From the NCBI GenBank assembly GCA_973895155.1, contig OZ316896.1:2790001-2854000 (forward strand): a DNA stretch of 64,000 bases. The letters are read 5' to 3'. The position numbers and the translations under genes are program-made. The stretch's first letter is position 1; each line of letters begins with the position of its first letter. The notes below the pieces were generated by a model that was not told the DNA's origin, did not search any database, and saw only the letters and a program-made list of their open reading frames with translations. This document shows, piece after piece, positions 26,866 to 29,800 of this stretch. Origin of the DNA: Marsupella aquatica (Eukaryota > Plantae > Marchantiophyta).

Positions 26866-29800
26866 TTAAGCAGACAAGGCAAAGCCAATCCGCTCATTTC
26901 CAAAATCAAACTCCGTGTGGTATACCCCCATGAAGACATCACCCAGGATCCTGCAGAATGGCGAGCACTTGTAAGATAACGTGGCATATAAAGTCTTGTT
27001 AGAAGAAGTGGCAGAAATTTCGAAGCATGGGATGACTGAAACCGGAACAGATCCACGTACCACAGAGGCCCAGCAGGTGCCGGGACATCAAGTCCTATAA
27101 ATCCACTTACGCACTGTGCTTCGATACCATCCCCAATTTTCAGTACGTACTGACCACAACAACACGACCAATCAGATTCTTTCAGCCTACACTGTAAGTC
27201 TTGAACTTGATGTACCTCCACAAACATCAACGAGATTCTCAAGCTAAAAACGTTTTACCGCTGCTTTGTGACAAAATTCATACGGATCACAGCAGAAGAC
27301 CCAGAAGATGACCCTCGGACACAGCATTAGATTGCACAGATTGACCACAACGCACAAAGGTCTACTGTGAAATCTCAATACCAAACGACGATGTCAGGAT
27401 GAGCTCATCGTACCTGCTCAGGAGTCAGTTCAAACTTTTTGCCCTCAATGGTGAATGCAACATTGGGCATTGTTTGGAGAGAATTACATTCCACTATAGA
27501 CTCTCCATTAGGACTAGGGAGGCGCTCGCAGAGCTGCCAACAAAAATGAGTTAGGTAAGTTCGACTTCTTGCTTTCAACAATTCAGGATAATCACTGCTT
27601 CAGGGTATCTAGAGACACAACACTGTATACGAACTTCTTGAAGAGGACTCAAACGAGTAAAAGCCAGCGAAGGAAACACTCTGCAGCGCCTCAGCGTTCA
27701 GACCACTTTTGCTCACATTATTGAGATAAGTCTCAATTTGGTCCCTGGTCTGATTCTGCCGCAGTTGATTTCCAACCCAAACCACTGCCATCTGACAGAC
27801 GGTACAGGTCACGTCATCCCCGAAACTCTCGACTCCTCTGTTCCTCTCGAGTACAGATGCGATGTGCGCTTCACTGCCATGGCAACGTTCGCCCAAGAGA
27901 TAAGTACTCAAGTCACTTCTATCCTTCAGGATGTGCAGGAGCCACTTAGACTCTCAAAGTAGGGAAAATACACATAACAACCATGGATTTCTGAGCGGCA
28001 ACATTGCTTTCTACAGCTCGCTGGATCCACAGATTAACGATCTCAGCAATCGGACCATAACGTCATATCTAACCTGATAGAAGCTGAAGAGTGAGCAGAG
28101 CAGAGACTAATCTGTTTACAGATGAGCTTTCCAGCCTGAGCATACAGTAAAGGCAAACAGGGCTTGGTATTATTTGAAACCAAACCAACCTGAAAGATGA
28201 TTGAGAAAAGCAGACACCAATTTGGGAACATATTTTTCCTGGGGCTATCTGCAAAACAAATTGCCTTACATTATATCTCTTTAATTCAAGCATACTGCTC
28301 TTATAAGTCCCTCCAAGACATGTAATCTCTTGTAACAAAATCGCAATAAAAGGTAACTACAGACATAAATTGAGAAATTCTCTAAGAGATGATTACGAAT
28401 TAGACATCATATAATAGGATGTCCCATACCTGCTGCTCTAGTAATTCGATAATCATTTCTGAATACTCTTCGACGACCATCTTGCACTCTTGGCTAACAA
28501 CACCGGATGCTCCAATCGCAGCATTGATCTCCGTAATAATGCCCTGCCGTTAGAAACTCAGTCAATCACAGACACAAGCTGCATGACTATGTATCATTAC
28601 GAGCTACTTGCACAAATCCTCTTCCAGGCTGCACGCACAGCCTAAAACTCATTCTACACAGAATATTTGAAGCACACACGTTCTTCATTTCATTCACTGC
28701 TGCATAGACTGTGCCAGGAGTGACATGCTCATGGTTACATACCGATGGACCTGCCAGCAGTGAAGTCCCAGAATCTACGATAGCAGCACAACCCCCAGCA
28801 CAGAATCCTGCAATATATTGACAGAGAAAATTATTTGACAAATACCAGGGATTCAATCAATTCTGGCCACTCCATGCTACAGAAAAGTAATTGTCATACG
28901 AAAACATGGTATTTAAAGAATAATTCCGTCTTGCACGTACCATACTTCGAAATTACGAAAGGATACAATTTTTCTTTGGCATACCTGTGCTCTTTCCGTC
29001 GACAAGAACATCACCCATGTTGAACTGCCAGTAACCCTTGCGAGTGACCGGGGTGTACATATGCTCGCCCGTGAAATGCTTGGGATCTGAACCACCAAAG
29101 ACGAGCTCTCCGCCATTTTCTTCATCAGTAGCATCTCTGTTCAACCAGAAAGAAAACACCGGCTCTTTGACAAGCTCTTGATCAACCATGTTGTACCTGG
29201 ACATCATTAACCACGTTACATCAAGCTCCACCTTTGCTACCACCTTCGCTATCTTGAGAATTGTAATAAACACGGTTCAAGGAAATGTGACCTATGATTA
29301 TCCCCATCGAGCAACAAACTTACCATGGGGGAGTCACTCTGTCCACGGATATCTCCTTGAAACCCAATCCCAAAATTCCATCGAACTTTGCAGTCAGAAA
29401 GGCGAGACCTGGTTCCTTCGTGGCTTCTGCAAAAACCTGTACAGGTAAAAGTTGACCAGAAGGGATCCCAAACTTCAGTCGTCAAACCATATCGACAACT
29501 CCAGGGGTTTCCACAAAGTGAGAAAAATGAAAGGAGACTCGTGTCACCATGTCGAACGAGAGATTTACTAACCTGGTCTTTGATGGAGATGTCACCAATT
29601 AGCAGGGTGTCCTGGCTGAGAAATCCTGACATCGCTCCCGAACCATACTGGATGGAAAACGATGAGCCTGCAGTCACACATAGATTAGTTTGACGAATAG
29701 GCACAGAAGTAGTTTTAGACCCGTCGAATAAAACCTGACCACCTAGGACGGGAGTGCACTCAAACACGATGCCAAAACCCTGCGCCCGCTGCACCTGGAG

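Follow-up and report, generated by a model that had tools for sequence, protein, structure and literature searches.

The window analysed here is a stretch of 64,000 nucleotides (nt) from the leafy liverwort Marsupella aquatica (contig OZ316896.1, positions 2,790,001 to 2,854,000 of the forward strand). It contains a single gene for the vacuolar protease phytepsin, with 12 coding exons per isoform, in which the exon for part of the saposin-like insert, or plant-specific insert (PSI), is present in two versions, here called A and B. By its motifs and domains the gene is a phytepsin, a typical plant A1 aspartic protease with a saposin-like insert: both isoforms have the two catalytic D-T/S-G motifs, located at residues 100 and 288, the exons flanking the pair match PF03489 and PF05184 (the saposin-like insert, SapB_2 followed by SapB_1, in the C-terminal lobe), and PF00026 was matched on four orthologues of the window protein, which is 64-83% identical to bryophyte phytepsins. 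B isoforms of the orthologues passed the SapB_2 cutoff at 39.4-39.5 bits and A isoforms at 45.6-45.7 bits. Barley prophytepsin (PDB 1QDM) was the best sequence match (E 7.8e-198) as well as the best fold match of a model of the Marchantia B isoform (Foldseek template modelling score of 0.92 on the target); both 1QDM and the PSI of potato StAP (3RFI) are A-type, with a proline-bearing helix H2, unlike exon B.

Both exons are flanked by AG and GT and each holds one pair of saposin cysteines (Table 1). Exon A retains a proline four residues ahead of the first cysteine, while exon B has no proline and one residue fewer ahead of that cysteine; anchored on it, the two exons share 20 of 36 bases. Of the gene's 12 inter-exon distances, the gap separating them is the shortest; the remaining 11 range from 110 to 367 nt. 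A sequence-only reading of this DNA had first reported the pair, and its coordinates, the lengths of 59 and 62 nt, the splice sites, the 0-to-2 phase, the cysteines and the translations were all reproduced.

Table 1. Features of the phytepsin gene, in positions of the window.
Feature	Positions	Strand	Remarks
Whole phytepsin gene (typical plant A1 aspartic protease)	26866..30618	-	exon model, motifs, tree
Upstream constitutive exon, ends in phase 0	28430..28543	-	PSI helix H1, start of SapB_2
Exon A, 59 nt, phase 0 to 2	28190..28248	-	ancestral-type; PSI helix H2 and start of linker
Internal GT in exon A, after codon 11	28214..28215	-	weak cryptic donor that would leave an 80-nt intron and an in-frame product of part of A plus B
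A-B gap, 54 nt, GT..AG	28136..28189	-	likely too short for splicing
Exon B, 62 nt, phase 0 to 2	28074..28135	-	liverwort variant
Downstream constitutive exon, needs phase 2	27717..27873	-	end of linker, helix H3, glycosylation sequon, SapB_1

The chance that such an exon arises by accident was gauged with a profile built from 67 non-liverwort exon cores, scored against AG..GT open 0-to-2 exons on both strands of the window (2165 candidate exons, 1633 acceptors). Exon A ranked first with 34.1 bits and exon B second with 17.5, the next candidate scoring 7.8; the flanking introns were judged not to contain a third exon, since the profile scored no further candidate.

In silico splicing gave an open product of 505 amino acids with A only and of 506 with B only. 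Joint inclusion leads to a stop at codon 398, skipping of both exons to a stop at codon 337, as the downstream exon then reads TGA immediately, and retention of the gap to a stop at codon 416; all these premature stops lie well 5' of later exon junctions. The earlier claim that both exons or neither would shift the frame was thereby borne out, and since the length of either exon is 2 modulo 3, any leaked transcripts would be frameshifted and would likely decay.

The pair recurs in other liverworts. The orthologue cluster of Marchantia polymorpha has three members, two of which, P0113 (BBN09637.1) and P0156 (BBN09638.1), have consecutive accessions and are annotated as isoforms of a single gene. 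These are identical at 490 of 506 residues, every difference falls within this exon, and one isoform is A-type and the other B-type. The pair is also found in later releases (BFI13839/13840 and BFI34145/34146), and a separately annotated Marchantia record, OAE27512.1, is the B form. The gene, Mapoly0090s0082 (MARPO_0090s0082), is about 68-69% identical overall to the window protein and its isoforms swap the equivalent A/B exon, although the longer exon differs, being A in Marchantia (21 against 20 residues) and B in the window (20 against 19 in A). At the level of annotation, then, Marchantia carries both either-or isoforms, in line with the proposal that one gene makes two PSI variants. According to PMC13078153, models of the Marchantia v7.1 annotation that disagreed with Iso-Seq were curated by hand.

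A tree of 29 rows shows the window gene to be orthologous to Mapoly0090s0082. The window protein clusters with four models of Calypogeia fissa and one JGI protein (100/100), this clade joins Mapoly0090s0082, its M. paleacea match and Riccia sorocarpa (97/90), and the second Marchantia paralogue, Mapoly0108s0063, falls outside. A constitutive exon of the gene had its best matches in C. fissa proteins (87-90%), to which the full-length identity of the window protein is 81-83%. As a separate observation, Mapoly0108s0063 (P0152/P0062) has only an A-like exon in four of its five members, those with the insert.

Two C. fissa models contain B only (P0002, CAM6087739.1, and P0232, CAM6087742.1), two contain A only (P0004 and P0123) and one, P0121, reads the first 11 residues of A and then B, which places both exons at one C. 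fissa locus in the same order as in the window. A JGI protein, P0006, has an A-type junction. In addition, P0002 and P0232, each modelled with exon B, have near-consecutive accessions and lie on a contig of equal length, which suggests that they are phytepsin copies in tandem, and P0123 has five extra residues, one of them a cysteine, between A and the downstream exon, which could be a mis-called or degenerate remnant of B.

In Riccia fluitans, the frameshifted model P0247 (R1flu_015381) runs through B and the downstream exon in the wrong frame. Its frameshifted stretch fits 17 of 20 Marchantia B residues, a value reached by none of 500 shuffles, against 5 of 20 for A; over B plus the downstream exon, the Marchantia B isoform fits at 43 of 50 positions and the A isoform at 11 of 51. 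As a control, 103 A-type peptides score at most 7, and the Marchantia B peptide 13 of 13. The model itself is probably mis-annotated, having no N-terminal lobe and a frameshift inside the saposin insert.

Over 14 anchored columns compared across species, A and A share 9-14 identities, B and B 6-9, and A and B 3-6; given this greater likeness within each type, a single old duplication is the simplest reading. Conservation in relatives was the point on which the sequence-only reading could have fallen, and the pair is present in liverworts of two classes, Calypogeia belonging to Jungermanniopsida, and Marchantia and Riccia to Marchantiopsida. When the Marchantia B region was used as query, one of three candidates matched, from its own cluster, which is too few to judge absence.

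In a wider comparison of proteins, 125 distinct insert segments were obtained from 213 of 276 (63 unparsed; P0121 tallied as A-type). In 123 of the 125 a proline stands four residues ahead of the first cysteine, and 119 have the 25-residue spacing; in this limited sample, both segments that lack the proline are liverwort B forms. A metagenome scan yielded six loci from 434 stretches, none of them like the liverwort orthologues (five at 57-61%; the partial L006, at 44%, was excluded from the exon count). Each of the five loci scanned, all outside the liverworts, has a single candidate exon position; the segments of four match the Sphagnum cluster, and the fifth locus comes from another plant. 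Separately, P0237, which is a phytepsin fragment of plant type that includes a saposin insert, carries the NCBI label Clostridium perfringens and is likely contamination. Exon A is like its counterpart in other land plants and is probably the ancestral copy; the duplication would be older than the split between Marchantiopsida and Jungermanniopsida and younger than the split from mosses. The two liverwort classes separated several hundred million years ago.

Moreover, DNA runs from two studies hold the window copy (window 26800-30700) together with two diverged copies, amounting to about three whole-gene copies per run; the extra copies are either paralogues or homeologues. Both diverged copies retain A, the gap and B. 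In one of them the gap has shrunk from 54 to 44 nt (10 nt lost) and the exons show no net indel, the only case there being a compensating pair of one-base indels in B (full listing for run X4). None of the changes listed in the diverged copies affects a cysteine codon or a splice dinucleotide, with the reservation that the B donor is close to the ends of contigs, where a change could escape the listing.

At the protein level the exon begins where the H2 peptide of StAP begins and runs into linker X of the potato PSI (PMC5717070). It encodes helix H2, and the membrane-active helix H3 lies outside it. In potato, the H2 cysteines form two of the three PSI disulfides, and on bilayers H2 alone is inactive, H3 is active and pH sensitivity resides in the N-terminal helix (PMC5717070). 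The glycosylation sequon lies outside the alternative exon and is common to both isoforms; a glycosylation switch was rejected on the ground that the sequon is identical in the two. AlphaFold2 models of the two Marchantia isoforms keep the fold, with predicted local distance difference test scores of 76.1 and 74.7, and contain a short helix that spans 338-344 in the A form and 340-343 in the B form, both exons forming the same structural element; local confidence is lower in B (77 and 72 versus 85 and 77 in A). Modelling of both variants had been proposed together with the pair: the expected fold and helix were found in each, but the difference between them is slight and weakly based, because the alignment behind the models is mostly A-type and makes the structural comparison weak.

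We regard this locus as a real, old tandem pair of homologous exons that is very likely mutually exclusive, with a probability of about 0.87. That both versions recur in distant liverworts makes an old either-or splicing switch likely, and the exons are adjacent, of similar sequence and length, and share frame and phases, the features by which homologous mutually exclusive exons have been recognised (PMC3923563, PMC5740500). In the mechanism we propose, the gap is likely too short to be spliced out. Once the A acceptor is used, the A donor would be unable to pair with the B acceptor and would join the downstream exon (316-nt intron); when A is passed over, the upstream donor would join B (294-nt intron), and transcripts with both exons or neither would be destroyed by nonsense-mediated decay. 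The output would be two phytepsins identical except for helix H2 of the saposin-like insert. Exons 2 and 3 of alpha-tropomyosin are mutually exclusive through steric interference of this kind.

The gap numbers would fit steric exclusion. Arithmetically, a branch point at least 13 nt from the acceptor in the gap would sit at most about 41 nt from the A donor, and the one YTNAY match in the gap is at -13; in a human atlas, steric interference was called when the donor-to-branch-point distance was below 50 nt (PMC5740500). The short gap claimed by the earlier reading was confirmed at 54 nt, below the minimum intron length of 60 with which Arabidopsis introns have been modelled (PMC11078188). The most serious competitor is that exclusivity is enforced by decay alone, or by competing RNA base-pairing between intron elements, as in the Dscam-like docking-site/selector subtype, and not by steric hindrance. 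Both-exon transcripts are indeed frameshifted, and in human clusters the frameshift type accounts for 60% against 9% for the steric type (PMC5740500); yet the gap is 54 nt in this gene and 44 nt in another copy, and a fold of 27860-28440 contained no helix longer than 7 base pairs (single sequence, no covariation), so that we consider this route unlikely, if worth keeping in mind.

Exclusivity might also be less than strict. The GT after codon 11 of exon A leaves an 80-nt intron, a spliceable length, and its use would join 11 A codons to B in a three-cysteine isoform with the shape of the C. fissa model P0121; otherwise, joint inclusion could act as a regulated decay switch. We judge this improbable, as the internal donor, GTCTGC, is far off consensus, P0121 is a gene model with no visible transcript support, the product would leave one cysteine unpaired, and none of the three Marchantia cluster members, all of them read, has a form made of part of A plus B.

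Several points weigh against a mutually exclusive pair. Runs X1-X4 behave as DNA, crossing introns unchanged and with no exon-boundary joints, and are uninformative on expression. The support from Marchantia comes from annotated proteins. Ten of the 11 listed changed exon codons in the diverged copies are non-synonymous, so these copies show conservation of frame and cysteines and not purifying selection at the codon level. The steric cutoffs would have to be carried over from human and Arabidopsis, not liverwort, and the predicted A and B structures, resting on an A-dominated alignment, differ only slightly. Finally, M. paleacea (P0157) and R. sorocarpa (P0024) are annotated with A only, and B is less conserved between species (6-9 identities) than A (9-14). 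The account in which exon B, though a real duplicate, is decaying or hardly used in this species, with protein made from A only, could draw on those two Marchantiales annotations and on the faster divergence of B, but it is the least probable of all, given that the B frame, both cysteines and the B-specific features are kept in Marchantia, Riccia and Calypogeia and that B is also kept in two other gene copies whose adjacent gap took indels.

Elsewhere in the window, a Ty1/copia-type retrotransposon coding region lies at 33668-37815 (minus strand), about 3 kb upstream of the phytepsin gene, with gag and a zinc knuckle in one open frame and integrase and reverse transcriptase in another. Two further open frames, 49271-49951 and 55891-56541 (both minus strand; 227 and 217 codons), had no Pfam match at E 0.01.

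Animals have many homologous mutually exclusive exons, and for plants few have been documented (PMC3923563). The human ones are likewise adjacent and similar in sequence and length, in the same frame and in the same structural element, with lengths not divisible by three, and have a short donor-to-branch-point distance, as predicted here (PMC5740500). In Arabidopsis, 14 internal exons are annotated as mutually exclusive, with very different lengths, none of 99 predicted internal candidates is so annotated (PMC3923563), and this is the least frequent type of splicing event (PMC9276941); in R. fluitans it accounts for 169 of 19,045 events (PMC13642808). The main text of that last paper makes no mention of aspartic proteases, and its event tables may list the pair. 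A literature search found no paper naming the Marchantia gene id and no publication on the exon pair, most subscription journals being outside its reach. The Marchantia isoform pair is thus already in databases, and the exon pair is seemingly undescribed in the literature searched.

The cardosin A and B PSIs of cardoon are likewise two PSI variants in one plant, and follow different vacuolar routes; the cardosins, however, are encoded by separate genes and their route depends on N-glycosylation (PMC6784193), whereas in the liverwort one gene carries both variants with the same sequon. The likeliest effect of swapping A for B is a changed kink between helices H1 and H2: being one residue shorter at the kink and without the proline, B is predicted to alter the geometry of the insert or its pH-dependent opening, the disulfide cysteines being kept. 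The chance that route or membrane activity differs between the variants we put at about one in three. As a whole picture, and with about the same chance, a splicing switch in place since the early liverwort radiation may toggle the H1-H2 kink, so that the two inserts would differ in the pH at which they open, dimerise or bind membranes, and the two phytepsins would go to different compartments or tissues.

The two natural variants amount to one short helix changed on an otherwise identical enzyme. As the pair occurs in an editable model plant, two questions become testable, namely how exon exclusivity is enforced in plants and what role the H1-H2 kink of the PSI plays. If the reading is true, the pair would count among the very few homologous mutually exclusive exon pairs with deep conservation in plants, and would tune PSI function independently of glycosylation.
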